A DNA stretch of 64,000 nucleotides from a virus (taxonomy: Duplodnaviria; Caudoviricetes): positions 32,001 through 96,000 of IMG/VR virus record IMGVR_UViG_3300013383_000002; one strand, 5' to 3'. A program made the translations under genes and the position numbers. The notes under the pieces are model-generated. The model saw only the letters and a program-made list of their open reading frames with translations, was not told the origin of the DNA and ran no database searches. Of the stretch, positions 7,154 to 55,361 are shown piece by piece. The number at the start of each line of letters is the position of its first letter. Position 1 is the stretch's first letter.

Positions 7154-9379
7154 TTAGTTACAGTGAGAGTAACCGCATTCCTTACAGATATCGCAACCGC
7201 CGCTATGCTCCAAAACCGCGCCGCACTCTGGACAACGCTCTCCGAACTTTTGTGATTTCTTTTTCTTTGGTTCCTCTAAATATCCCAATTCTTCTTGAAC
7301 TTCTTTCCACATATCCATCAGTGCATTGCCTATTGCCATTGGGCAACACGCGCCCTTAGATGTATCATGCTTTGTGGCTGTCCTAATAGCATAACTAGGA
7401 CAAGCACCAGTTGAATTGAGCTGGTCTTGGATATCATTTATGCTAACTCCAGCTCTACAGGCAAGAGAAACCATTCGAGACAATCCGACCATATAATTGG
7501 AGCATCCCCCCAAACTACCTTTTGTAAAGAACACTTCAACTAAATCACCATAAACTGGTTCAAAGAACCCAAGAACATGAGTTGAGCCGCAGCCATTGAT
7601 TATCTTTCTTTTTTTACCAATCAAATCATCCGCGCATTTCATAACTTCTCCGCGCTTCAATTCCTTATGAGAAGTCTCTTCTTTTTTGTTTTCGGTAGTC
7701 AAGATGCCGAGACGCTTACAACCATCCCTAAACATGGTAATACCTTTACAACCAGATGACCAAGCAAGTAGGTACATATGTGCAATATCATCTTTGGTTG
7801 CAGAATTCGGCATATTTACTGTAGAGCTAATTGCTGTGTCAACGTGTTTTTGCATCGCTGCTTGTGTTAGAACTCTACTTTGCCAAGAAATATCAGCTGA
7901 ACCGACAAAATAATTTGGTAGCTCTTTTGTATTGTTTATTTCCATATACTCGCATGCTGCCTTACAATAAACATCATAATAGGTATCTTCCCCATCTGTC
8001 ATACCTACCGTTCTTCTTGTATATTTTAGCGCAAATTCCGGTTCGCAGCCTCCGCTTTCTCCTAGTAAAGTAGCTAGTGAACCGGTTGGAGCAACTGAAA
8101 CTAAACTACAATTTCTTAGCCCGTATTCTTTTAGTCCAGTTATTTCATCTGGAGTAAAATGTAGTTTTATAATGTCGCTATCAAAAATTTCTTCCTTATA
8201 TTTTGGATACGGCCCAAATTCCTTTGCTAACTTATTGCTTGCTAAAACAGCGCGTCTAAAGATAAGAGAGAAGACATCATCTGTAAATTCAATAGCCTCC
8301 GGTGAGCCATACTTAAATCCTAATTTCATAAGAGCAGTAGCATAACCAAAAATACCTAAACCAATGTTTCTATAATTATAGGACATTTCTCTTTGTTGTT
8401 GTAATGGATGTCTATTATAATTTTCATCAATAAGTTTATCAAGAGTTCTAATTCCGACGTCAATTGCCGATAATAAATCTGCTGTATTTAGATGAGCTTG
8501 CAGAGTATATGGATTCACAATAAATTCAGAAAGATTCAGAGAAGATAGACAGCAGGCACCGTGCTTTGGAAGAGGCTGCTCGCCACAGGGATTACAAGTT
8601 TCAATCTCGTAGTCTTTATCAAATTGCATCAAATTATAATTTCTAAATCTATTGATGAAAAGACAAGCTGGGTCAGCCCAATCATAGCAATTATCAACTA
8701 GCATTTTGAAAATTTCAATAGGTGTAACATCATATTCTATTTCATGCCCAGAGTAGTTTCGCTTTTCGTGCAGCGTTACAACCTCTCCAGTGTCATAATA
8801 TTTCTCAACAGCTCGCATAAATTCGTCATCAAGTTCAAGAGACAAATTGGCTTTTTCAATTTCCCCTTCTTTTGACTTTATTTTTATAAAAGTCTCTGCT
8901 TCTTTATGCCGTGCGTCAATAGAAAGCATTAGCGCACCCTTGCGCGCGCCTCCTTGTGAAGTTCCCGCTGTGACTTCATTGAAAATTTTCATAAAAGGAA
9001 CAATTCCATCAGAATAGTATTCAGTTTTTATTGGAGTTCCCTTTGGGCGTAATTTTGTAAGAGAAATTCCTTGGCCGCCTTGTGCTTTGAAAGTAATGCC
9101 AATGTCTTTTGCGGCATCCATAATATCATAATAGTCGTCTTCAACATAACCTCTTGAATAACAATTGAATAAACTGCCAGTATTATCTAGGCCTCTATTG
9201 GCTAAAGTACGCCCGCCCATCAAGAATTTTTTCTCGATAATTAGTTTTCGTAATTCATTATCTCCTGCACTTACTCTATCTAGCCATTCTTCAAAACTTT
9301 CATCATTGTGTCGATATTTACGTTGCCAGATGTCTTGCGCAAGTTGATTATTTTCTCCAAGCCAATCCTTTACGGTCAT
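7154..9379 (-). CDS. nrdJ: class II (B12-dependent) ribonucleotide reductase with C-terminal TSCPD-like and Zn-ribbon domain
   Basis: NCY, TCNPCGEQ, VAPTGS, AISSTVN and KGITMFRDG motifs; C-terminal CPECG...CKECGYS; no adjacent small subunit. Confidence 0.88.
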   Translation of the reverse strand: MTVKDWLGENNQLAQDIWQRKYRHNDESFEEWLDRVSAGDNELRKLIIEKKFLMGGRTLANRGLDNTGSLFNCYSRGYVEDDYYDIMDAAKDIGITFKAQGGQGISLTKLRPKGTPIKTEYYSDGIVPFMKIFNEVTAGTSQGGARKGALMLSIDARHKEAETFIKIKSKEGEIEKANLSLELDDEFMRAVEKYYDTGEVVTLHEKRNYSGHEIEYDVTPIEIFKMLVDNCYDWADPACLFINRFRNYNLMQFDKDYEIETCNPCGEQPLPKHGACCLSSLNLSEFIVNPYTLQAHLNTADLLSAIDVGIRTLDKLIDENYNRHPLQQQREMSYNYRNIGLGIFGYATALMKLGFKYGSPEAIEFTDDVFSLIFRRAVLASNKLAKEFGPYPKYKEEIFDSDIIKLHFTPDEITGLKEYGLRNCSLVSVAPTGSLATLLGESGGCEPEFALKYTRRTVGMTDGEDTYYDVYCKAACEYMEINNTKELPNYFVGSADISWQSRVLTQAAMQKHVDTAISSTVNMPNSATKDDIAHMYLLAWSSGCKGITMFRDGCKRLGILTTENKKEETSHKELKRGEVMKCADDLIGKKRKIINGCGSTHVLGFFEPVYGDLVEVFFTKGSLGGCSNYMVGLSRMVSLACRAGVSINDIQDQLNSTGACPSYAIRTATKHDTSKGACCPMAIGNALMDMWKEVQEELGYLEEPKKKKSQKFGERCPECGAVLEHSGGCDICKECGYSHCN

Positions 9380-9570
9380 TCTTTTTCCTCCGTGTAACAA
9401 TATTCACAATAGCCATTTATAAAATTGTGCTGACATTGTGCTTGAAGTTTTTTATTTTCTTCTAATAATTTAGCAACAGTATTATTTAGAGTGAATTTAT
9501 TTGGTGTTACTAACTGTTCAATAATACTATTATTTTCATCTATTTTTTGTTTTATTTCTAAATTAGTCAT
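9376..9570 (-). CDS. hypothetical small Zn-binding protein
   Basis: CxH...CxxC; coupled to nrdJ. Confidence 0.65.
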   Translation of the reverse strand: MTNLEIKQKIDENNSIIEQLVTPNKFTLNNTVAKLLEENKKLQAQCQHNFINGYCEYCYTEEKE

Positions 9571-43802: not shown

Positions 43803-44906
43803 ATGCTTGGATACATTGATGGGTATAATTTCAAAGAGATGAACCCAATGAAGTATTGGGCCGCGCCATCTTCTTGGGACACAGAAAAAAAGAAGACTAC
43901 TCTTATCAATAGAATTTACAGCGGTGAATGGTGCGCCTCTGAAAAGAAAGATGGGTACTTTTCAAAGTTTGTAAAGGATGAGGATGGAAATATTCTTCTT
44001 TATAGTAGAAGTCGAAATGTGAAAGGCGAATATCCAGAAAAGCATGAATGGGTTCCTCAACTTCAGTCTTTCTTTGAAGCACTTCCAAATGGAACTTGTA
44101 TCCTCGGCGAGCTATATCTCCCTTCAAAGCCGGGTTCTTCTAATATTACTACTCTTTTAGGTTGTCTAAAAGAGAAGTGCATCGCGCGCCAGGAAAAAGG
44201 GGAAAAACTTCACTTCTATGCTTTTGATATTCTGGCCTATGATGGTGTTAGCTATATGAAGAAGCCCGCCGATGAGCGTTTCTCCAAAATTGAAGAACTA
44301 GGAAAAAATTACACAAGTGACTTTGTTTCTTTTGCCACCTATTATCATGGGGAGGAGCTTTGGAATAAACTCCAAGAAATCTTGGCAAATGGCGGCGAAG
44401 GAATGGTCATTATTCGTGATGGTTCTTTATATCAGCCAGATAAGCGCCCCAGTAAAGACACTCAAAAAGCCAAAAAAGAACTTCAGGAAACTCTTGACGT
44501 CTTTATCTATGGCGCGAACCCTCCAACTCGTCTTTATTCCGGAAAGGAGATTGAAAGTTGGCAGTATTGGCAGAATACTATTACCAATGAATTCCTTTGC
44601 GGCGACCACTATAAGGAATACTTTGATGGTGATACAATTGAGCCTGTTACAAAAATGTATTATATGCGTGGTGCGGGTAGCCTAAAAATTGGCGCGTATA
44701 AGGACGGAAAGCCGGTTCAGATTGGGAGTCTTAGTGGACTTGATGATGAAATTTTACTCCATTGGAAGGATTATATTGGAAAGGTAGCAGAAGTTACTTG
44801 TATGGAAATCATGCCCACTGGTGGCCTAAGGCATCCTCGTTTTCTATCTTTCCGCGAAGATAAAACTCCGCGCGACTGTCAGTGGGAGACAATTTTCGGA
44901 GGATAA
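43803..44906 (+). CDS. ATP-dependent DNA ligase
   Basis: EKKDG (adenylation Lys), GEL, FDIL, EGMV, LRHPRF..FREDK. Confidence 0.92.
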   Translation: MLGYIDGYNFKEMNPMKYWAAPSSWDTEKKKTTLINRIYSGEWCASEKKDGYFSKFVKDEDGNILLYSRSRNVKGEYPEKHEWVPQLQSFFEALPNGTCILGELYLPSKPGSSNITTLLGCLKEKCIARQEKGEKLHFYAFDILAYDGVSYMKKPADERFSKIEELGKNYTSDFVSFATYYHGEELWNKLQEILANGGEGMVIIRDGSLYQPDKRPSKDTQKAKKELQETLDVFIYGANPPTRLYSGKEIESWQYWQNTITNEFLCGDHYKEYFDGDTIEPVTKMYYMRGAGSLKIGAYKDGKPVQIGSLSGLDDEILLHWKDYIGKVAEVTCMEIMPTGGLRHPRFLSFREDKTPRDCQWETIFGG

Positions 44907-45755
44907 ATGAGTAGAAAAGCTATAGATGAAACAGGAAAACGGTATAATCATTTGACTGTAATAAGAGAAGCCACCGAAGAAGAATTTGAACGAGGAGGCG
45001 GAAAAGGTAGAAAATGGCTTTGTCGTTGTGATTGCGGAGCTTTGACTTTTGCTGATGGAAGAGAGCTTCGCAATGGAAGACGAATATCTTGTGGGTGCGT
45101 CGGGAGAGAAAAGGCTAAGGAATTAGCAAGGAAGTTGGGACTTAATCGTCGGCTAGAACTTACTGGGAAAAAATTTGGAATGTTGACTGTAATTGAATTA
45201 GACCCCGAATGGGATAGGCAAGTAAAACAAACCCCTATTTGGATATGTAAATGCGATTGTGGTAGTATTTCAAAGGTTCGGTCGGGTAATTTAGTAAGTG
45301 GACACGCAACTTCTTGTGGATGCCGAAGAGGTTTGATGGCAGGTTCTTCTGGGGAGCAAAAAATCGTTGAAATATTGAATAAAGGTAAAATTATTTTTGA
45401 AAGAGAAAAAACTTTTTCGGATTTGAAAGGCTTTGGCACAGTAAAACTTCGATACGATTTTTATTTGCCTGATTATAATGGAAAAGAAGTTTTGATAGAA
45501 TTTCAGGGGATAGAACATTATAAACGAACTGCTTATTTCCAAAAAGAAGAAGCTGATTTTAAAAGAAGACAAATTTACGATGAAAAGAAGATAAGTTATA
45601 GTTTAGCTAATAAAATATCTTTATACTGTATTCCTTATTGGGTTCAGAATGACTTGAATGAAGTAAATGATTTATTTCGAGAGGATTTTTTGGCGAAGAC
45701 GAAGGACCATAATTATACTGCTTATAGATTATTTTTACAGCAAAAACAAAAATAA
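44907..45755 (+). CDS. free-standing homing-endonuclease-like protein, paralog of 36076..36993
   Basis: Two CxCDCG...SCGC repeats; YDF...IEFQG.EH. Confidence 0.75.
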   Translation: MSRKAIDETGKRYNHLTVIREATEEEFERGGGKGRKWLCRCDCGALTFADGRELRNGRRISCGCVGREKAKELARKLGLNRRLELTGKKFGMLTVIELDPEWDRQVKQTPIWICKCDCGSISKVRSGNLVSGHATSCGCRRGLMAGSSGEQKIVEILNKGKIIFEREKTFSDLKGFGTVKLRYDFYLPDYNGKEVLIEFQGIEHYKRTAYFQKEEADFKRRQIYDEKKISYSLANKISLYCIPYWVQNDLNEVNDLFREDFLAKTKDHNYTAYRLFLQQKQK

Positions 45756-48114: not shown

Positions 48115-49006
48115 GTTGCTACGGAAATGTGGCGCAGAGAAAATTCAAGAATTTGTTGGAAGATTTCCAAATGGTGTTGAAGCGCTAGACTTTCTTGAAG
48201 AAATTGGCCCTGAAGCAATTGCTGGTAACTATAGTCCATGGCTTGAGGCATTATACTGGGGTTACCGAATGCTGCCCTGGACCACCAAAGAAAAAGAGAA
48301 ATACTGTGAAGTTTTGAATATTGATAGTTCTTCTAGCGTCTATGAAAGTTATGATGTAGAAGAAAGTGAAAAAGTTATTCATTCTGATCACATTTATCTG
48401 AGCGGAAACATTGACAACTGTAGTAATATTAGAAATAGTAATTACGTTGCTTCTAGTGCTACAGTTGAAGGAAGTGACGGCGTCCTAAAGTCAGAATATA
48501 TTGTGAATAGTAGTCTAATTGATACTGGAATGGACATTCAAAGTTCAAAAGAAATTTATAAAGCATCGCATGTGAAGAAAAGTCAGAAGTGCGCGCGAGT
48601 TGATAGTATTGAGAATTGCGTCGGAATTTTCAGTTCTTCTGGATGTGAAGAAGTCTATTACTCTTCTTTTATGAAGAATTGTCATCATTGCCTTTTCTGT
48701 GATGATATTGAGGATGCTTCTTTTAGAATCTTCAACCAACCAGTGCCTGAGAAGGATTTCTTCGTAATTCTTTCGATGGTTGAAAGCTATTTTGATAACA
48801 AGCTTGAACCTTTGATTGAAACCATAGTAAATGACGAATTTTATTTTGGCCTTGATTGGCATGTTTCGACGCACTTTACAAAGATTTATAGGAGCCTGTC
48901 GCAGGAGGTCTTCAATCAACTTTATAGACTACCTGGTTATAATGACTGGCTGATGTATCAGATTACATTGAATACTCGAAGTTTTCGAGATTTGAAAAAT
49001 AGCTAA
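48095..49006 (+). CDS. hypothetical protein with short Ser/Cys hexapeptide-like repeats
   Basis: 303 aa; repetitive S..V..S central region. Confidence 0.7.
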   Translation: MMYLTAELLRKCGAEKIQEFVGRFPNGVEALDFLEEIGPEAIAGNYSPWLEALYWGYRMLPWTTKEKEKYCEVLNIDSSSSVYESYDVEESEKVIHSDHIYLSGNIDNCSNIRNSNYVASSATVEGSDGVLKSEYIVNSSLIDTGMDIQSSKEIYKASHVKKSQKCARVDSIENCVGIFSSSGCEEVYYSSFMKNCHHCLFCDDIEDASFRIFNQPVPEKDFFVILSMVESYFDNKLEPLIETIVNDEFYFGLDWHVSTHFTKIYRSLSQEVFNQLYRLPGYNDWLMYQITLNTRSFRDLKNS

Positions 49007-49054
49007 ATTTCGAGTATAATATTTATACAAAATGGTTGAGGAAAGGAAAAAGAA

Positions 49055-49189
49055 ATGACTTATCATTGGAAGGCAGAAGTAGCAATTCTTGAAAATCGCA
49101 TCCATCTTCTTGAACAGCGCGGAGATAATGCATCAATTCTCGCAAAGCTCAAGCGAAGACTTAGAAAGCTATTATCTAGCTCTTATTGA
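49055..49189 (+). CDS. small basic protein (44 aa)
   Basis: Promoter 48991-49020; MTYHWKAEVAILENRIHLLEQRG...LKRRLRKL. Confidence 0.5.
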   Translation: MTYHWKAEVAILENRIHLLEQRGDNASILAKLKRRLRKLLSSSY

Positions 49190-49360
49190 GCTATTTGGCG
49201 CACGACGGAAACTTACCGTGAATGTCCGAAGTGGCCTCAGTTGGGAAGGCTTACCAGCTTTATAAAAACCGAGCAATCAAGACAAAGTGCTAGCCATACT
49301 TTGAGGAAGCAAATAGGTGGGCGGGAACCGGCTCTCCCGTGGCTAGAAACCGAGATAGAC

Positions 49361-49435
49361 GCAAGTATCGTATAATGGCTAGTATAGTAGCCCTCCAAGC
49401 TATGGGTGCGGGTTCGATTCCCGCTACTTGCTCCA
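49361..49435 (+). tRNA. tRNA-Gly(TCC)
   Basis: Cloverleaf with GCAAGTA/TACTTGC, T-loop TTCGATT, encoded CCA; C at position 33. Confidence 0.88.
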
Positions 49436-49840
49436 GGCGATGAAGTGGTTCTGTCACCAGTAGGAACCATGGAGCCTCTTCCAAGGTTTTGCGGTTACGT
49501 TCATAAGAACGGGAAAAATCCGTCTGGTTCTATCGAAAAACCGTTAGGAAAAAAGGTTATGGCCGTCCCGATATTTCGAGGCGAGTGCGCACGAAGCCGT
49601 TACCTTTTAAGTGGGCCATTGCTTCGTCTCTCAACGAAGTGGGTTATGAAAATCCTAGCATTGGCTAGGTGGACTAGGCGCGAGACGTTTAGCCCAAGCG
49701 ATGATACTATGTCACCGGGGCAATATCGGCGGTGTAGTGGAGCTTTTGTCGAGGGTTTGTAGATTTCCCACAGATTGCCTAGGGGCTACCTTGTAGGAGA
49801 CTGCCGAAAGAAAATCTACTATTGATTATCCTGCGCGCCT
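49436..49840 (+). ncRNA. compact OLE-like RNA
   Basis: Ordered motifs matching my recall of the OLE consensus (ACCGTTAGGA, TTAAGTG.GCCATTGC, GGGTTA..AAAATCCTA, GTGGACTAG, ACTATGT, GTGTAG, TTTTGT.GA, ATTGCCT.GG, GAGACT, CTA.TAT.GATTA), plus many paired stems. Confidence 0.65.
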
Positions 49841-50016
49841 CTGTTTTTCGCATAATAAGCGCCTCAGCAGGCTTTTGGAAAAAGTAAGGTCCTTCTTTTA
49901 TAGGAATTTGACTGATAGTTTGGTCACTGGAGGTCTATTCTGATTTTGGCTGAAATGCGAATAGTTCGCGCGGACTTCTTCGCTGACCACTTAGTGGTTC
50001 GCGCGAACGTTTATAT

Positions 50017-50110
50017 GCTCCCATAGTGTAATGGCAACACACCCGGCTTATACCCGGCATTGGCTCCAGATTAGAGCACGTTCTTGGTTCGAGTCCAAGT
50101 GGGAGTACCA
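50017..50110 (+). tRNA. tRNA-Ile(TAT) with long variable arm
   Basis: GCTCCCA/TGGGAGT acceptor, loop CTTATAC, T-arm CTTGG-TTCGAGT-CCAAG, CCA. Confidence 0.85.
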
Positions 50111-50114
50111 TGGC

Positions 50115-50307
50115 GCCCAACCGCCAATAAGAGTTGGTTATAACCGTGTCTTACGCGCAAACTAGATACGGCTCCCACTGGGAGTAAGGTGATTGCGCGA
50201 CGGTCCCGCTCCGTCAAAGTTAGCGTGAAGGGCGACGGCAGTCCAGAATAGTGAAGCGAGGTTCGATTCCTCAAACTGAACTGGTTCGACTCCAGCAGTG
50301 CGTGGGC
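50115..50307 (+). ncRNA. pseudoknotted RNA with two tandem T-arm-like hairpins
   Basis: GCCCA/TGGGC closure; GAGG-TTCGATT-CCTC and CTGG-TTCGACT-CCAG; loop CGCGCAA pairs with TTGCGCG. Confidence 0.5.
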
Positions 50308-50323
50308 AAAACTATTCACGATA

Positions 50324-50394
50324 TCCTCTATTGGTGTAATGGTAGCACACTCCCCGTCAAGGGAGAAGAGCGGGTTCGAGACCGTGCGGAGGAC
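50324..50394 (+). tRNA. degenerate tRNA-Asp(GTC)
   Basis: Normal D-arm; CTCCC/GGGAG stem with a 6-nt loop CGTCAA; imperfect acceptor and T stems; no CCA. Confidence 0.55.
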
Positions 50395-50582
50395 GGCTTG
50401 ACACAGTCGGAGTGTTATCTCTGGTATACAGATTAGCGTATACAAAGCAATCATCTTCAAAGGCTCTAGATTGTGAGGAGAAACAGCCCCTTGGGTTCTC
50501 CACTACATACATCCCCAGCGGTTGTTATGCTGAGACCGATGGCGCGACGGTCGTTTATAATATCGCGCCACTTGTCTAAAAT

Positions 50583-50657
50583 GCGGGTGTAGTATAATGG
50601 TTATTATGTCTGCCTTCCAAGCAGAAGATGGGGCTTCGATTGCCTTCACTCGTTCCA
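50583..50657 (+). tRNA. tRNA-Gly(TCC), second copy
   Basis: TCTGC-CTTCCAA-GCAGA; CCA end. Confidence 0.88.
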
Positions 50658-50741
50658 CCGCCCCATGGGAAGTTTGCCTCCAATAAGTCTCATGACCACT
50701 ACTAGATTGCACTAGTTGACTGAATAAAGGTGGTTTTATAT

Positions 50742-50818
50742 GCACTTGTAGCTCAGTTGGTAGTAGCAATTGCCTTTTAAGCAATGGGTCGGGCATTCGA
50801 GTTGCCCCAAGTGCACCA
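50742..50818 (+). tRNA. tRNA-Lys(TTT)
   Basis: GCACTTG/CAAGTGC; ATTGC-CTTTTAA-GCAAT; CCA. Confidence 0.92.
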
Positions 50819-50953
50819 TTTTATTTGGAATCAATAGCTTGTCCACCTTTGGGCGGCCCGTAATAGCCGGACATTTGAAAATTTCTTCTCGTAAATGTTT
50901 GAAATTTTTCTGATTTTTTGATATAATATTTACAGAAAGTGAGGGAAACGAAA

Positions 50954-51118
50954 ATGGAAACTGAAACTCCGAGGAAGCCCGAAGAAAAGAAAATGTCTCC
51001 CGAACAACTTGAGAAGTGGACGGCGCTCCGTAAGAAATGTCAGGTCTTTCCTTCTCGGAAGCCTTATACCAGAAAAGTCAAGCACAAAAATCGTGAAAAA
51101 GAAAACTCTGAAACTTGA
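50954..51118 (+). CDS. small basic protein with ArfA-like YxRKxKH motif
   Basis: Own promoter (50899-50927); 54 aa ending FPSRKPYTRKVKHKNREKENSET. Confidence 0.55.
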   Translation: METETPRKPEEKKMSPEQLEKWTALRKKCQVFPSRKPYTRKVKHKNREKENSET

Positions 51119-51156
51119 AAACCTCCTAAATTTTTGATATAATATTTATACAGAAT

Positions 51157-51198
51157 GAGAGAGGAACTGGTCTTTTCCTTTCTACCAGTTCCTCTCTC
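51157..51198 (+). other. perfect 14-bp hairpin just downstream of a promoter
   Basis: GAGAGAGGAACTGG ... CCAGTTCCTCTCTC; no poly-T tail. Confidence 0.6.
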
Positions 51199-51230
51199 GC
51201 TAAAAGTCCTAATGTGGCTTACTTAAACCA

Positions 51231-51485
51231 TCCGATGTAGTTCAACTGGATAGAATACCGCATTGATAAAGCGGAGCTTCCGGCCTTCGGGTGGTTGGTA
51301 AGCAGTCCCAAGCCTGCGTAAACACAGAGGGAGACTAATAGCGACGTTATGGTTGCAAACATAGCGTTCAAAACTTCGAGACAGGCAAGTCTTCAGCAGT
51401 GGATGTCTGATGAAACAACGACGGCGAAGGAGTCGCGACCTTCGGAGGAGCCGAGATAAACCTACGGGTGGAACCGCCATCGGAG
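51231..51485 (+). ncRNA. tRNA-Ile(GAT)-like RNA with ~190-nt insertion in the variable region
   Basis: TCCGATG (51231) pairs perfectly with CATCGGA (51478); canonical D-arm and GAT anticodon arm; weak T-arm at 51464-51477. Confidence 0.55.
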
Positions 51486-51705
51486 AAAAAGGAGTTTGTT
51501 AGTCACACCAGTTTCGTGGTTCTGGAACAAAACCGCCTGGCGCAACTCCTATGGCGCTATATAAGTAGAATAGGCGTAGTCTGACATGACGAGACGTTCA
51601 GAAGTTTCGATGCGTGGGCTTATCTATAAAACTCATGCTGGGTCTTTGGGCCTTTTACCTCCTGTGTGAAACAAAAGGCTCAGACTTTTATAATTGGTGT
51701 ATTGA

Positions 51706-52302
51706 ATGAAGAAATGGGAGAATTTTTCTAGAGAAGAAATTGAAAATTTTGTAAAAGAAAGTCGTAGCTATCGTGATTTGGCACTAAAATTAGGTTATGG
51801 CAGCGCGATTGCTATTATAAAGTCAATGACTCAAGAACTAAATTTAGACACTTCTCATTTCACTGGTCAAGGTTGGAATAAGGATAATTTTGATTATTCA
51901 AGATTTCAATATGGAAAGAAAATTCGTGGAGCCACTATGATTCAAGCATTGACAGCTTTGAAAGGTTGGAAATGTGAGAATTGTGGATTGACAGAATGGC
52001 AGGGACAGAAAGCACCTCTTGAAGTTCATCACATAGATGGCGATGAACTGAATTCTGTTTTAGAAAATCTTCAAGTCCTTTGTCCTAATTGCCATGCTTT
52101 GACTGATAATTATAAAGGGAGAAATCAAAAGAAGCAAGGCGGTTTGAAAGTGTCCGAAGAAGTTCTAGTAGAAGCTTTACGCGAAGCTCCAAATATTCGT
52201 CAGGCGCTACTTCGAGTAGGACTAACAGCAAAAGGCGCCAATTATATTAGAGCAAATGAACTTATTATAAAATATCAAATAGAAAAGCATCTGAAAAAGT
52301 GA
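51706..52302 (+). CDS. HNH endonuclease within the tRNA cluster
   Basis: CENC...LEVHHIDGD..N....NLQVLCPNCH. Confidence 0.9.
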   Translation: MKKWENFSREEIENFVKESRSYRDLALKLGYGSAIAIIKSMTQELNLDTSHFTGQGWNKDNFDYSRFQYGKKIRGATMIQALTALKGWKCENCGLTEWQGQKAPLEVHHIDGDELNSVLENLQVLCPNCHALTDNYKGRNQKKQGGLKVSEEVLVEALREAPNIRQALLRVGLTAKGANYIRANELIIKYQIEKHLKK

Positions 52303-52305
52303 TAT

Positions 52306-52390
52306 CTGCGCGTGGTGGAAATGGCATACACATCTGGTTCAAGCCCAGATGCCTTAGGGATTAAGAGTTCGACTCTCTTCGCGCAGACCA
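52306..52390 (+). tRNA. tRNA-Leu(CAA)
   Basis: CTGCGCG/CGCGCAG; loop TTCAAGC; long variable arm; CCA. Confidence 0.9.
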
Positions 52391-52470
52391 ACCAGTATTA
52401 TTGCTGGTGGGAATGCTACCAAAAGTGCATCCTTGGTCATGGGAGGTTGTAGGATAAATGACCTAATATT

Positions 52471-52540
52471 GCGCTGGTCGTCTAAAGGTAGGACATCGGA
52501 CTCATTATCCGAAGACAACGTTCGATTCGTTCGGGCGCAA
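52471..52540 (+). tRNA. tRNA with CAT anticodon (Met/Ile2), atypical
   Basis: TCGGA-CTCATTA-TCCGA; 4-bp T stem; no CCA; followed by a ribozyme. Confidence 0.7.
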
Positions 52541-52596
52541 GACATCTAAAAGAGAATACCTCCACGTGGTAGATGTCGGGTAACGCTAAATTCTCT
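52541..52596 (+). ncRNA. theta (minimal HDV-like) self-cleaving ribozyme
   Basis: P1 GACATCT/AGATGTC, P2 AGAGAAT/ATTCTCT, P3 ACC/GGT with loop TCCACGT, GG for P1.1, catalytic C in GCTAA; sits directly 3' of a tRNA. Confidence 0.85.
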
Positions 52597-53203
52597 TTGT
52601 ACCTTGAAAATAAAATACTTTAGAACTCGATGATAAACACTCCGCGACTAGGAGTGTCGAGGCGTCTTGGAAAGAGGATGGCAGACAACGAGCAAGGATA
52701 CTTGCAGATACTGACCAGTGCGCGCGACGTGAGTTGCGTGCCATAGAGGATGAACTCCCAATCCCACGAGACGGCATTGGGGTCAACGCAAGTAAAGGTA
52801 GGACGCGCGTCGCTAACGTAATAGAGGCTCTCAAGATAATTGAGGCTGAATCCTAATCTCCCTTAGCTGGTGACTGTGGGCGGAGCAATTTGGTTAGGAA
52901 ATAACCACAAGTTAGTTTGCTGTGAAGCGAAGAAATTCGTGTATAAGACGTGTATGAGAACTCTGAGTAGCCAAAGGCAAGCTCGTATATTATTTTTACA
53001 GCTATTATTATTGGAAAATGCTGAATGGTTGGTGAAAGGTTCTGGTAATCAATCCAGAAAAGACTATGCGCACGAAAGTGCGGCTATGAGAAGTATGCGC
53101 GGGACGCTGTGTATGCTCAGCCTCATGGTGCTTTTGACTGAATATGCTTGAAGTTGATTTCGGTAGGTTGAAGAACCCAAAGTATTTTATTTTCAGGGTA
53201 TAA
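52597..53203 (+). ncRNA. ROOL-like large ornate RNA (~607 nt)
   Basis: ~24-bp terminal helix TACCTTGAAAATAAAATACTTT/AAAGTATTTTATTTTCAGGGTA; internal GAGTAGC, GGTGAAAG, GGTAATCAATCC, GCTCAG and GACTGAATA motifs; no credible ORF. Confidence 0.7.
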
Positions 53204-53259
53204 GCCCTTTCGACGGACAGGAACGTTGGAAATTTTGAAATGATAGGAGAGGAACTATT

Positions 53260-53550
53260 ATGGCAAGATTTTATAGTGATATTACAAACAAGCTTTATGA
53301 CACCATGGCTGACCTAGAAGGAGCTGAAAAGTCTTTTATCGAGGCTAAGGAAGAGAAGAAGAGAAAGGAGCAGCAGAAGGCTGACGAGCGTAAGGCTCGC
53401 GCGCAGGAAGTTGAGGAGCTTCGTAAGGCATATATTGATGCCCGAAAGAATTACACTGATGCCCTTCAGCATTTTTGTGATGATTATGGAACTTTCCACA
53501 CTTCCGTTTCTTCTGATAATCTTTTTGATTTTCTTTGGAGCTGGATGTAA
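53260..53550 (+). CDS. hypothetical coiled-coil protein
   Basis: RBS; followed by a terminator. Confidence 0.75.
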   Translation: MARFYSDITNKLYDTMADLEGAEKSFIEAKEEKKRKEQQKADERKARAQEVEELRKAYIDARKNYTDALQHFCDDYGTFHTSVSSDNLFDFLWSWM

Positions 53551-53558
53551 GATTGAAT

Positions 53559-53587
53559 GGCGCCCTTAGATGGGCGCTTTTCTTTTA
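53559..53587 (+). terminator. intrinsic terminator
   Basis: GGCGCCC TTAGAT GGGCGCT TTTCTTTT. Confidence 0.75.
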
Positions 53588-54530: not shown

Positions 54531-55361
54531 ATGGACTATACAGGAATTAGAGAAGTTTCGCTTAGTCAAGAAGAGTTAGCGCAATTTTATCAAGGGGAGT
54601 ATCCAATTCCCAACTTATTGGAGAACCAATACGTTTTTCTTCGTGGTGAAACGGGGGAAGTTGTGGATAAGCTCTTCTGGCGCGCAGGAAAACTTGAAAG
54701 AGTTCCTTATACTGTTTTTTCTTCTGATTTTATGGGAAAAATAAAGCCACGCAATCCAGAACAAGAGTGCGCCTTTCACCTTTTACACAGTCAAAACATT
54801 AGAGTAAAGTTGATTACTGGCCGATTTGGTTCTGGCAAATCCATGAGTATGATTGCGCAAGCTGTTGAAGCATTAGATAAGGGTGTAGTTGATAAAATAG
54901 TCTATGTTCGCAACAATATTGCTGTGCGCGACACCACTGAGCTAGGGGCACTTCCTGGATCAGAAATAGACAAATTATTACCATATTTGATGCAGTTCGC
55001 AGACCACGTCGGCGGCAAAGAAGCTCTTATAAGAATGATTTCTGAGGAGAAATTAGAACCAATTCATCTAGGATATTTGCGCGGACGAGACATCAGAAAT
55101 TCGATTATTTATGTTACAGAAGCACAAAATCTAACAGTAGACCATATCAAATTACTCCTTGGGCGAGTTGGAGAAGGGTCTTATCTTTATCTTGATGGAG
55201 ATTTTCACGCGCAAATTGACCGTTCTGTTTTTGAACGTTCTCCCGGCCTGAAGAGACTAATCGAGGTTTTAGCGGGTAATAAACTGTTTGGTTATGTAAA
55301 TCTAGTAAAGTCAGAGCGTTCTGAGGTTTCTGCCTTGGCTGATTTACTAGATGAGAATTGA
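54531..55361 (+). CDS. phoH: PhoH-family ATPase
   Basis: PRN.EQ, GRFGSGKS, GALPG, YLRGR, EAQN, GD..QID, RSE. Confidence 0.9.
   Translation: MDYTGIREVSLSQEELAQFYQGEYPIPNLLENQYVFLRGETGEVVDKLFWRAGKLERVPYTVFSSDFMGKIKPRNPEQECAFHLLHSQNIRVKLITGRFGSGKSMSMIAQAVEALDKGVVDKIVYVRNNIAVRDTTELGALPGSEIDKLLPYLMQFADHVGGKEALIRMISEEKLEPIHLGYLRGRDIRNSIIYVTEAQNLTVDHIKLLLGRVGEGSYLYLDGDFHAQIDRSVFERSPGLKRLIEVLAGNKLFGYVNLVKSERSEVSALADLLDEN

Follow-up and report, generated by a model that had tools for sequence, protein, structure and literature searches.

An island of tRNA genes, non-coding RNAs and small protein genes was located on the + strand at positions 48992-53578 of the stretch of DNA analysed (the window, 64,000 nt), which is part of the complete 121-kb (121,436-bp) genome of a phage that is probably lytic-type and probably has a Bacillota host (Table 1). 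The island carried six tRNA genes, all on the + strand, and every tRNA match over the family cut-off in a genome-wide search of the 121,436-bp phage fell within it (tRNA-Leu was not relisted in that search). A first-pass annotation had described the region as richer in GC than its flanks, and this was borne out by values of 0.42-0.54 for the island vs 0.36-0.40 for the flanks. The covariance-model search proposed at that stage returned full-model matches above the Rfam gathering score for the ROOL and drum RNAs.

Table 1. Features of the island in order along the + strand (window coordinates).
Feature	Position	Strand	Basis or remark
Promoter A, TTGAAA-N17-TATAAT	48992..49020	+	Class with 5 window copies
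44-aa small ORF, head of transcription unit A	49055..49189	+	Conserved in all relatives
~165-nt leader RNA, no Rfam family	49190..49353	+	Common to all relatives
tRNA-Gly(UCC), encoded CCA	49361..49435	+	tRNA gene call and Rfam
Truncated drum copy, 5' domain only	49435..49505	+	RF02958 30.7 bits, under gathering score 43
drum RNA RF02958	49696..49822	+	53.5 bits, gathering score 43, full model
Spacer, drum to tRNA(UAU)	49823..50016	+	This phage only; folding z-score -1.9
tRNA(UAU), 94 nt, 'expanded tRNA'	50017..50110	+	tRNA gene call
Spacer with two T-arm-like hairpins (about 50258-50295)	50111..50324	+	Read from sequence; folding z-score -1.0
Decayed tRNA-like element, 6-nt anticodon loop	50325..50393	+	23.6 bits, under gathering score
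tRNA-Gly(UCC), second copy	50583..50657	+	tRNA gene call and Rfam
tRNA-Lys(UUU)	50742..50818	+	tRNA gene call and Rfam
Promoter B, TTGAAA-N17-TATAAT	50899..50927	+	Class with 5 window copies
ORF54, small basic protein gene, 54 aa	50954..51118	+	Substitution pattern vs relatives
Promoter C, TTGAAA-N17-TATAAT	51115..51143	+	Class with 5 window copies; kept in relatives
Leader hairpin, 14 bp	51157..51198	+	100% paired; one compensatory pair in L002/L018
Type-P1 twister ribozyme	51202..51339	+	Core identity, covariation, weak Rfam matches
tRNA-Ile(GAU) remnant within twister P3	51230..51292	+	Comparison with relatives
Spacer, several hairpins, 3' of twister	51340..51705	+	Overall folding z-score -0.3
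Free-standing HNH homing endonuclease gene, few nt 5' of tRNA-Leu	51706..52302	+	phrog_10822, Pfam HNH
tRNA-Leu(CAA)	52306..52390	+	tRNA gene call and Rfam
tRNA(CAU), Met-type, without encoded CCA	52471..52539	+	tRNA gene call and Rfam
Theta (minimal HDV-like) ribozyme	52541..52598	+	Descriptor search, published core, covariation
ROOL RNA	52602..53197	+	273.8 bits, gathering score 99.1, model 1-574
ORF96, small protein gene 3' of ROOL	53260..53550	+	71-76% amino-acid identity in relatives
First predicted + strand intrinsic terminator	53559..53578	+	Terminator prediction

The three consensus promoters reported earlier were found to be near-identical copies of one phage class, which was present 5 times in the window vs 0.06 copies expected by chance, and no + strand intrinsic terminator was predicted across the island before position 53559. 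The same annotation had called the span nearly devoid of credible open reading frames; this was overstated, since the HNH endonuclease gene and the conserved ORF54 lie inside it and ~19% of the span is therefore coding. The HNH gene matched phrog_10822 with an E of 2.4e-36, while differences between ORF54 and its relatives fell mainly on third codon positions (13-18, against 4-6 at first and 1-2 at second positions). Comparisons were made with sister loci and with L018, a distant relative of 80% identity, in which the first 36 residues of the 44-aa ORF were 56% identical.

The 94-nt tRNA(UAU) has a class-I body, A73, an encoded CCA and a conserved long variable arm, in keeping with the expanded tRNA that had been claimed. 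Its acceptor, D and T stems were changed compensatorily relative to relatives, with the sequence of the variable arm kept. An ordinary 76-nt tRNA-Ile(UAU) was found in the same slot of one sister phage (L009), which argues for ordinary Ile decoding by the phage tRNA(UAU) as well. Other tRNA sequences have decayed. Homologs of the tRNA-like element at 50325-50393 in L002, L004 and L018 were called as 'tRNA-???(tc)' by ARAGORN (33.3 bits for the L002 copy), and the tRNA-Ile(GAU) gene, intact in relatives by ARAGORN and Rfam (38.9-44.7 bits), has lost half of its T arm in this phage via a 12-nt deletion.

The region 3' of the first tRNA-Gly had been read as an OLE-like RNA starting immediately after the CCA. 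The OLE covariance model gave no match at E<=10, whether 5.3 kb or 601 nt were searched, and that identity was rejected: the region comprises a drum RNA and a truncated drum copy. The abutment itself was borne out: the truncated copy (E 0.0007 in the 601-nt search, 36 internal 3'-domain positions missing) begins on the final base of the CCA of tRNA-Gly. The drum closing helix carried compensatory changes between this phage and its relatives, in all of which drum ended ~5 nt 5' of tRNA(UAU); the spacer separating the two here was missing there. In sister phages the leader RNA lay directly 5' of drum, and two of its hairpins showed compensatory changes vs L018, with a folding z-score of +0.3 for the leader RNA itself.

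In the opening part of the third transcription unit, the leader hairpin was located between the predicted transcription start and the predicted cleavage site of a twister ribozyme (between T51210 and A51211). The fold comprises P1 (51202-08 with 51333-39), P2 (51213-16 with 51323-26), P4 (51302-05 with 51314-17) and the pseudoknots T1 (51217-18 with 51312-13) and T2 (51307-09 with 51329-31). P3, normally a short optional hairpin in twister ribozymes, forms an arm here (51219-22 with 51298-301 and 51226-29 with 51293-96) that has the tRNA-Ile(GAU) sequence inside. The core was identical to that of 16 unrelated phage twister loci. Across the sister phages 93.9% of alignment cells were paired, against 35-47% in slid controls, and 12 pairs were changed on both sides vs 4.3+-1.7 in shuffles (0/500 shuffles reached this number); P1, P3, P4 and T2 were the helices backed by covariation. 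P1 is short in this lineage, with 4 pairs and a mismatch. All Rfam ribozyme models scored under their gathering scores; the twister matches were weak (22.8-25.7 bits) because P3 carries a complete tRNA in the lineage. A role of the twister in producing that tRNA is excluded in this phage, where the tRNA is broken.

A theta ribozyme, the sole descriptor match in 6 kb, separates the Met-type tRNA from ROOL. Cleavage is predicted 5' of G52541, with C 52586 as the catalytic base, and the fold consists of P1 (52541-47 with 52571-77), P2 (52551-57 with 52590-96), P3 (52558-60 with 52568-70) and P1.1 (52562-63 with 52578-79). Its helices were 100% paired, P1 and P2 were compensated in 10 of 14 pairs, and the HDV-F-prausnitzii model matched there at 25.9 bits. 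The ROOL-like RNA of the first-pass annotation was established as a full-length ROOL. It adjoins theta as stated, but with a gap of 3 nt rather than at the very next base, so that the order reads tRNA-Met discriminator, 1 nt, theta, 3 nt, ROOL. With a strict descriptor, theta was found 5' of ROOL in 0 of 27 unrelated ROOL loci (a control with the wrong catalytic base gave 2 matches), and the junction of theta with ROOL is confined to this lineage. The junction is dispensable for ROOL, another element of ~120 nt occupying that place in six sister or related loci. In one unrelated phage (L044) ROOL (8780-9365) was held without spacer between two tRNAs (8716-8788 and 9362-9433), and in another (L032) it lay between tRNAs at gaps of ~20 nt; these arrangements support tRNA-defined ends as a general rule.

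It had also been stated that almost every spacer is base-paired, which went too far. Folding z-scores of the spacers ranged from +0.7 to -2.1, no better than shuffled sequence or coding controls (-0.7 to -2.0), and the only outliers among the RNA elements were ROOL (-5.6) and the leader hairpin with twister (-4.1). Several spacers are decayed tRNAs; the two T-arm-like hairpins of the spacer at 50111-50324, of which only 50149-50221 was common to relatives, are probably remnants of this kind. Against its relatives, this phage showed full compensation in the first hairpin of the spacer 3' of the twister.

One interpretation of these data, and in our judgement a likely one, is that the island is a promoter-driven modular RNA operon with predicted cutting by tRNA-processing enzymes and two ribozymes. 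The three promoter copies would drive long transcripts of tRNAs, small protein genes and non-coding RNAs, and the lack of a terminator between units would give long precursors. Host tRNA-processing enzymes (RNase P for the 5' ends of tRNAs, trimming enzymes for their 3' ends), together with the two self-cleaving ribozymes, would then separate the RNAs. The twister would free the third unit of its 5' leader hairpin, cutting ~20 nt 5' of the tRNA in its own P3. The theta cut, one base 3' of the tRNA-Met discriminator, would finish the 3' side of that tRNA and leave ROOL with a 5'-hydroxyl end, on which the folded 58-nt ribozyme sits as a cap. Neighbouring tRNAs would bound the drum RNAs, at the tRNA-Gly CCA for the truncated copy and at tRNA(UAU) in the sister phages. 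During infection, the tRNAs (Gly-UCC twice, Ile-UAU, Lys-UUU, Leu-CAA and Met-CAU) may add to the decoding capacity for the AT-rich genes of the phage; both ROOL and drum belong to families that travel with phage tRNA arrays. The polycistronic RNA cut at tRNAs and ribozymes that had been proposed thus fits the anatomy of the elements, although its OLE component and mostly structured spacers fell away.

It could be that the ribozymes act on mRNA or tRNA only, with 5' trimming by the twister controlling the expression or stability of the downstream HNH and ORF96 genes, in the general manner of phage twisters, theta trimming the tRNA-Met trailer, and contact with the tRNA arm and ROOL being incidental. 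Many unrelated phage twisters do have a ribosome-binding site and start codon immediately 3' of them, theta has been published as acting in tRNA 3' maturation (Kienbeck et al. 2024, PMC10879173), and ROOL occurs without theta in other phages. Note, however, that P3 of the lineage twister specifically encloses a tRNA, that the helix extending the acceptor stem of this tRNA (P3b) covaries, and that theta ended 3 nt 5' of the ROOL closing helix in all four phages that carry it. This explanation is considered possible, at perhaps one chance in a few.

Compared across about 10 sister phages, the island proved to be a mosaic. Its content varied strongly between phages with 95-98% identical flanking proteins, only 2 of the ~10 relatives had the HNH cassette (L005 alone sharing it with this phage), and two segments, 49354-49674, an insertion which holds the first tRNA-Gly(UCC), and 49818-50039, were unique to this phage and so have no comparative support. 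The island would evolve as cassettes are exchanged, homing endonucleases insert and tRNAs decay, and these processes would explain much of the spacer DNA that had seemed 'structured'. Such variability, together with the two alternative modules 5' of ROOL, the two broken tRNA sequences and the truncated drum copy, would suit an ordinary tRNA cluster in which selfish or hitchhiking modules (ROOL, drum, ribozymes, homing endonuclease and decayed tRNAs) have gathered, their adjacencies accidental and free of any processing logic. This is rather unlikely: ROOL was kept in all eight sister loci that reach its position (seven by Rfam at 272-286 bits and L003 by alignment) and in L018, drum in every sister locus and L018 (55-57 bits), ribozyme helices and tRNA(UAU) stems were maintained by compensatory changes, spacings of 0-5 nt recurred between elements, and ROOL-tRNA sandwiches recurred in unrelated phages. 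The first-pass reading of a compact OLE-like RNA amid spacers that are nearly all functional structured RNAs for translation or stress response is very improbable, for although the region 3' of tRNA-Gly is non-coding and GC-rich and some spacer hairpins show compensatory changes, the blocks listed for OLE lie inside the two drum matches and the spacers have the control-like folding, phage-specific segments and tRNA remnants described above.

The modular RNA operon is the preferred reading, and can be compared with known systems: each of its parts is assignable to a known family, and some of the arrangements are absent from the literature searched. The likeness to OLE (Ornate Large Extremophilic RNA) goes no further than being non-coding and a few hundred nucleotides long; drum explains the region. 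A long variable arm combined with the anticodon UAU is also seen in the nematode V-arm tRNAs called nev-tRNAs (Hamashima et al. 2012, PMC3333845), from which the phage tRNA differs in its class-I D arm and in having a sister phage with an ordinary tRNA-Ile(UAU). Drum was described with a 3' terminator and links to particular nearby protein genes (Weinberg et al. 2017). The island copy resembles it in its full-model match, conserved sequence and compensated closing helix, but is without a terminator and inside a tRNA array, with tRNA(UAU) as its next 3' neighbour; a DUF3800-type gene was not found in the phage.

The type-P1 twister (Rfam RF03160), reportedly described by Roth and colleagues in 2014, shares with the island copy the conserved core, P1, P2, P4 and both pseudoknots. 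The lineage differs in that P3 bears a complete tRNA on a covarying helix, an arrangement of which no description was found in the literature searched. Theta ribozymes are known at tRNA 3' ends of gut Caudoviricetes whose hosts are mostly Bacteroidota, and >70% follow tRNA-Met, suppressor or Leu tRNAs, which rarely encode CCA (PMC10879173). The island copy shares the nested double pseudoknot without P4, has a core identical to a published one (ACC-T-CC-ACGT-GGT...GG-GTAACG-CTAA) and lies within 1 nt 3' of a CCA-less tRNA(CAU). It differs in having a large ROOL RNA as its downstream product, and in being carried by a phage that has sigma-70-type promoters and in which no CCA-adding enzyme gene was found. 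No mention of ROOL together with HDV-like ribozymes was encountered in the literature searched. ROOL and GOLLD RNAs occur near phage tRNAs, ROOL in the tRNA islands of both phages and prophages (Weinberg et al. 2017, PMC5737381; Kretsch et al. 2025, PMC12286853), and the island copy is like these ROOL RNAs (RF03087) in being carried by a phage and adjoining a tRNA array on the same strand; its 5' boundary, however, is a theta ribozyme, where elsewhere it is a tRNA or a spacer.

The IMG/VR phage genome, of which the window covers bases 32001-96000, is complete (121,436 bp, with direct terminal repeats), and replication and morphogenesis genes encoding a DNA polymerase, a topoisomerase II, a DnaB-like helicase, a DNA ligase, a head-maturation protease-like protein and a PhoH-like protein lie around the island, the plus-strand stretch of tRNAs and other RNAs at 48992-53578. 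The three promoters that the first-pass annotation had placed there proved to be real matches to one promoter class, which has five plus-strand copies in the window where chance would give 0.06, and the GC content of the island does exceed that of its flanks. The earliest plus-strand terminator-like site lies close to its downstream end. The island is most likely an RNA operon, driven from these promoters, whose transcripts would be matured by host tRNA-processing enzymes together with two ribozymes. Its anatomy and the conservation of its parts were observed directly, and from these we infer that it would be transcribed and cleaved and might have some role in infection. The promoters are of the sigma-70 type and the Shine-Dalgarno sites are strong, which suggests a host within the Bacillota. 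Contigs from four wastewater 'RNA-Seq' runs contained only low-depth pieces of relatives and tRNA-like fragments, and were uninformative on RNA ends and expression.

Features of the island and its surroundings (positions in the window unless a comparison locus is named)
Feature	Position	Strand	Basis or remark
DNA ligase gene	43803-44906		
Second homing-endonuclease-like gene	44907-45755		HNH / intron-encoded nuclease PHROGs
Promoter-class copies	47395, 48992, 50899, 51115, 57125	+	TTGAAA-N17-TATAATATTTA
Leader RNA (candidate)	49190-49353		~165 nt, non-coding
Segments present only in this phage	49354-49674, 49818-50039		
tRNA-Gly(UCC)	49361-49435	+	ARAGORN, Rfam
Second drum match	49435-49505		Rfam, relaxed thresholds; 30.7 bits (gathering score 43)
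Drum RNA	49696-49822		Rfam RF02958; 53.5 bits (gathering score 43)
tRNA(UAU), 94 nt	50017-50110	+	ARAGORN, Rfam
tRNA-Gly(UCC)	50583-50657	+	ARAGORN, Rfam
tRNA-Lys(UUU)	50742-50818	+	ARAGORN, Rfam
Twister cut	51210/51211		Predicted, U-A step
CATCGGA	51478-51484		
HNH gene, first 300 nt	51706-52005		
tRNA-Leu(CAA)	52306-52390	+	ARAGORN, Rfam
tRNA(CAU)	52471-52539	+	ARAGORN, Rfam
Theta ribozyme	52541-52598		Descriptor search
ROOL RNA	52602-53197		Rfam RF03087; 273.8 bits (gathering score 99.1)
Terminator-like site	53559	+	
PhoH-like gene	54531-55361		
~120-nt element upstream of ROOL	L002:4407-4509; L007:13924-14026		Homologs in L003, L005, L006, L018

The island is not the nearly gene-free tract it had been taken for. 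It contains an HNH homing endonuclease gene and ORF54, in which third codon positions carry most of the differences from relatives; ORF44 just upstream and ORF96 just downstream are both conserved. Over its first 300 nt the HNH gene gave a folding z of -4.0 against shuffles, unlike the other coding controls. A second homing-endonuclease-like gene directly follows the DNA ligase gene, and identification of that ligase as a DRB0094 RNA ligase was ruled out, the enzyme being of the DNA-ligase type. Downstream of ROOL, at a distance of 1.3 kb, is the PhoH-like gene, and its top NCBIfam match is the PhoH2 RNA 5'-3' helicase model, at a score far under the model cut-off.

Six tRNAs were found in the island by both programs; these are all the tRNA genes of the window, and a whole-genome search returned none outside the island. 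The proposal of an expanded tRNA was borne out by tRNA(UAU), which has the extra stem-loop between anticodon arm and T arm that defines class II; in the ARAGORN drawing this variable arm has a stem of 4-5 bp and the D arm is class-I-like. A tRNA(UAU) of 94-95 nt was found in nearly all relatives; the copy in this phage is set apart from theirs by compensatory substitutions located in the acceptor, D and T stems, with an unchanged sequence in the long variable arm. A normal 76-nt tRNA-Ile(UAU) occupies the same slot in the sister phage L009, which argues for ordinary AUA decoding by the long-arm form and not for recoding. In unrelated phages, too, there are tRNA(UAU) genes with a long arm, 81-92 nt in length. 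In the unrelated phages L081/L111, L108 and L118, such tRNAs (90, 81 and 92 nt, respectively) each lie less than about 350 nt from a drum RNA.

Homology and covariation, both anticipated in the first-pass annotation, were found: ROOL and drum scored above their Rfam gathering scores, with the ribozyme models below theirs, and compensatory pairs were present among homologs in the theta and twister ribozymes and in the stems of tRNA(UAU). The proposed OLE-like RNA fared differently, as zero matches to the OLE covariance model were obtained at E<=10 and an OLE identity, lacking any Rfam match, was rejected. The junction described between a large RNA and the tRNA-Gly CCA does exist, the RNA starting at the last base of the CCA, but this RNA is a partial drum copy with the 5' domain present and the 3' domain missing. 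What had been read as OLE-like is one and a half drum RNAs, the ~190 nt between them being found only in this phage. Among 50 drum loci (~17 lineages), same-strand tRNAs lie within 400 nt in seven lineages and include tRNA-Ile(UAU) in four of these; drum and tRNA(UAU) may be associated. A DUF3800-type gene near drum is absent from this phage genome.

The Rfam matches to twister were weak (25.7 bits with the P1 model, gathering score 67.2; 22.8-24.7 bits with the P3 model, gathering score 39.9) and lay beside a weak tRNA match. These scores are low because the P3 arm encloses a tRNA and extends to ~76 nt in the window and ~90 nt in relatives. A twister-core pattern scan of IMG/VR yielded 24 loci, 16 of them from unrelated phages, and these 16 (one a near-miss) are arranged as P1, T^AA, a 4-nt P2, GC(C), a P3 hairpin, the P4 loop GTCCCAAGC, (A/G)TAAA, P2', GAGGG and P1'. 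These strings recur in the island in unchanged order, with the type-P1 core of T^AA, 4-bp P2, GC, P4 loop, (A/G)TAAA and GAGGG. Unlike the P3 of the 16 unrelated twisters, that of the island holds a tRNA-Ile(GAU), mounted on a helix continuing the acceptor stem. When nine sister and related phages were aligned over the leader hairpin, P1-P4 and the pseudoknots T1 and T2, the structure was 93.9% paired and 12 pairs were changed on both sides, against 4.3 ± 1.7 in shuffles (0/500); compensatory changes fell in P1, P3b, P4 and T2, while P2 and T1 were invariant but paired. The tRNA-Ile(GAU) is intact in relatives, and in this phage a 12-nt deletion in the T arm leaves a pseudo-tRNA within an intact ribozyme. 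Cleavage at the predicted site would remove a conserved 5' leader hairpin.

A circularly permuted, type P3 twister, as the Rfam P3 alignment would have it, was ruled out. What it would take as its 3' half is an ordinary hairpin with full compensation in this phage, and the TAATGTGGC 5' half upstream also fits all of the unrelated twisters; on both grounds type P1, with the tRNA placed in P3, was preferred. No description of a tRNA within a twister arm was found in the limited set of papers searched. A twister with a tRNA on one arm would represent a novel natural design among small ribozymes, and a 5'-side counterpart of the theta ribozymes on the 3' side of phage tRNAs. The heptamer CATCGGA, ~240 nt downstream, is fully complementary to the tRNA-Ile(GAU) acceptor stem on its 5' strand; in relatives this putative pairing is compensated in one, broken in one and reduced to wobble pairs in two. 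Many unrelated phage twisters (L060-L078) immediately precede a ribosome-binding site and start codon, which suggests that phage twisters generally trim mRNA 5' ends.

The ROOL-like helix seen at first pass belongs to a full-length ROOL RNA, matching model positions 1-574 without truncation; other members are known from cryo-EM to form a homo-oligomeric nanocage (Kretsch et al. 2025, PMC12286853). The theta ribozyme reported directly before it was recovered as a minimal HDV-like fold, the only match of a descriptor search in 6 kb, with the ROOL closing helix starting 3 nt after it. Its P1, P2, P3 and P1.1 form a nested double pseudoknot without P4, the core nucleotides are conserved, and the catalytic C is C52586, the first position of J4/2. 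A single A separates the tRNA(CAU) discriminator (52539) from G1 (52541), so that the predicted cleavage site is no more than 5 nt from the tRNA 3' end. HDV-like ribozymes cleave at their own 5' end, and theta would therefore remain attached to ROOL. In an alignment of five sequences (this phage, the published theta and three sister-phage copies), 19/19 pairs were formed in all five, and both sides were changed in 10 of the 14 P1/P2 pairs; 0/500 shuffles reached this, and slid controls were 38-48% paired. The HDV-F-prausnitzii model (RF02682), which represents a different subfamily, gave 25.9 bits against a gathering score of 44. Judged on sequence, the element has every feature of the theta family, and its self-cleavage is predicted. 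A CCA-adding enzyme, found in many theta-bearing phages, is absent from this phage genome.

The idea that theta generally caps the 5' end of ROOL was ruled out, as it is restricted to four sister phages and the descriptor search found none upstream of ROOL in 27/27 unrelated loci. At several unrelated ROOL loci, tRNAs flank ROOL directly, with a minimum spacing of zero on both sides. Taken together, the island and the comparison loci suggest that ROOL ends are set by tRNA processing or by a ribozyme, which is directly testable. In the unrelated phages L044, L042, L054, L032, L046, L024 and L055, ROOL lies directly between two tRNAs, with zero spacing in L044 (8079-9433); the ROOL islands of L042 and L044 also contain a skipping-rope RNA, and those of L032, L046, L024 and L055 a phage tmRNA.

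The statement that nearly every spacer is base-paired was not supported, since spacer folding energies were no better than those of shuffles or coding controls. Some spacers are recognizable as tRNA remnants, among them T-arm hairpins and a tRNA-like element whose anticodon loop has 6 nt, and in others there are hairpins showing a few compensatory changes. The best candidate for an additional conserved RNA is the 165-nt leader, which has two covarying hairpins, retains long invariant stretches even against a 70%-identical relative, and lies directly before drum in sister phages; it gave zero matches to Rfam families.

The island is carried by about 10 phages with flanking proteins 95-98% identical and by one at 80%; among GenBank phages no close relatives were found, the matches being tRNA and HNH fragments only. 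Its content is mosaic among sister phages: two segments occur only in this phage, the HNH cassette is shared with only one relative, and the module before ROOL is either tRNA-Met with theta (four phages) or a ~120-nt closed structure of another kind (six phages). This ~120-nt element, closed by ACUCUC/GAGAGU, is conserved, sits directly upstream of ROOL in place of theta, and has zero Rfam family matches. The sister phages differ from one another by natural swaps, with theta or another element before ROOL, an intact or broken twister tRNA, and the HNH cassette present or absent, a series that would make functional tests straightforward. Because several ROOL loci adjoin tRNAs and seven drum lineages have them nearby, embedded non-coding RNAs with tRNA-defined ends would seem, from these comparisons of sequence, to be general in phage tRNA arrays, and the ribozyme junctions are particular to this lineage.

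A more speculative proposal, possible but in our estimation rather unlikely, is that in this phage lineage both ribozymes act as built-in processing signals of the RNA operon, independent of host enzymes. Placement of the tRNA on the twister P3 arm would couple ribozyme folding and cleavage to tRNA release, and one theta cut would both finish tRNA-Met and give ROOL a ribozyme-capped 5'-hydroxyl end. If so, such an end would affect ROOL stability or cage assembly. In the literature searched, no description was found of either ribozyme use, that is, of the twister-tRNA chimera or of a theta cut joining the finishing of tRNA-Met to a ribozyme-capped ROOL.

Set against known systems, the theta ribozyme has exactly the same core as one parsed in the literature as P1, J, P2, ACC, T, CC, ACGT, GGT, P1', GG, GTAACG, CTAA, P2' (Kienbeck et al. 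2024, PMC10879173, supplementary file 3), and the tRNA before it is, as usual in the published family, Met-type without an encoded CCA (PMC10879173). Drum was described with a Rho-independent terminator after it (Weinberg et al. 2017, PMC5737381), whereas none is predicted here and a tRNA follows drum in relatives. The island is not categorically new, because each part belongs to a known family; the twister-tRNA chimera, the theta-ROOL junction and drum within tRNA arrays are new variants.
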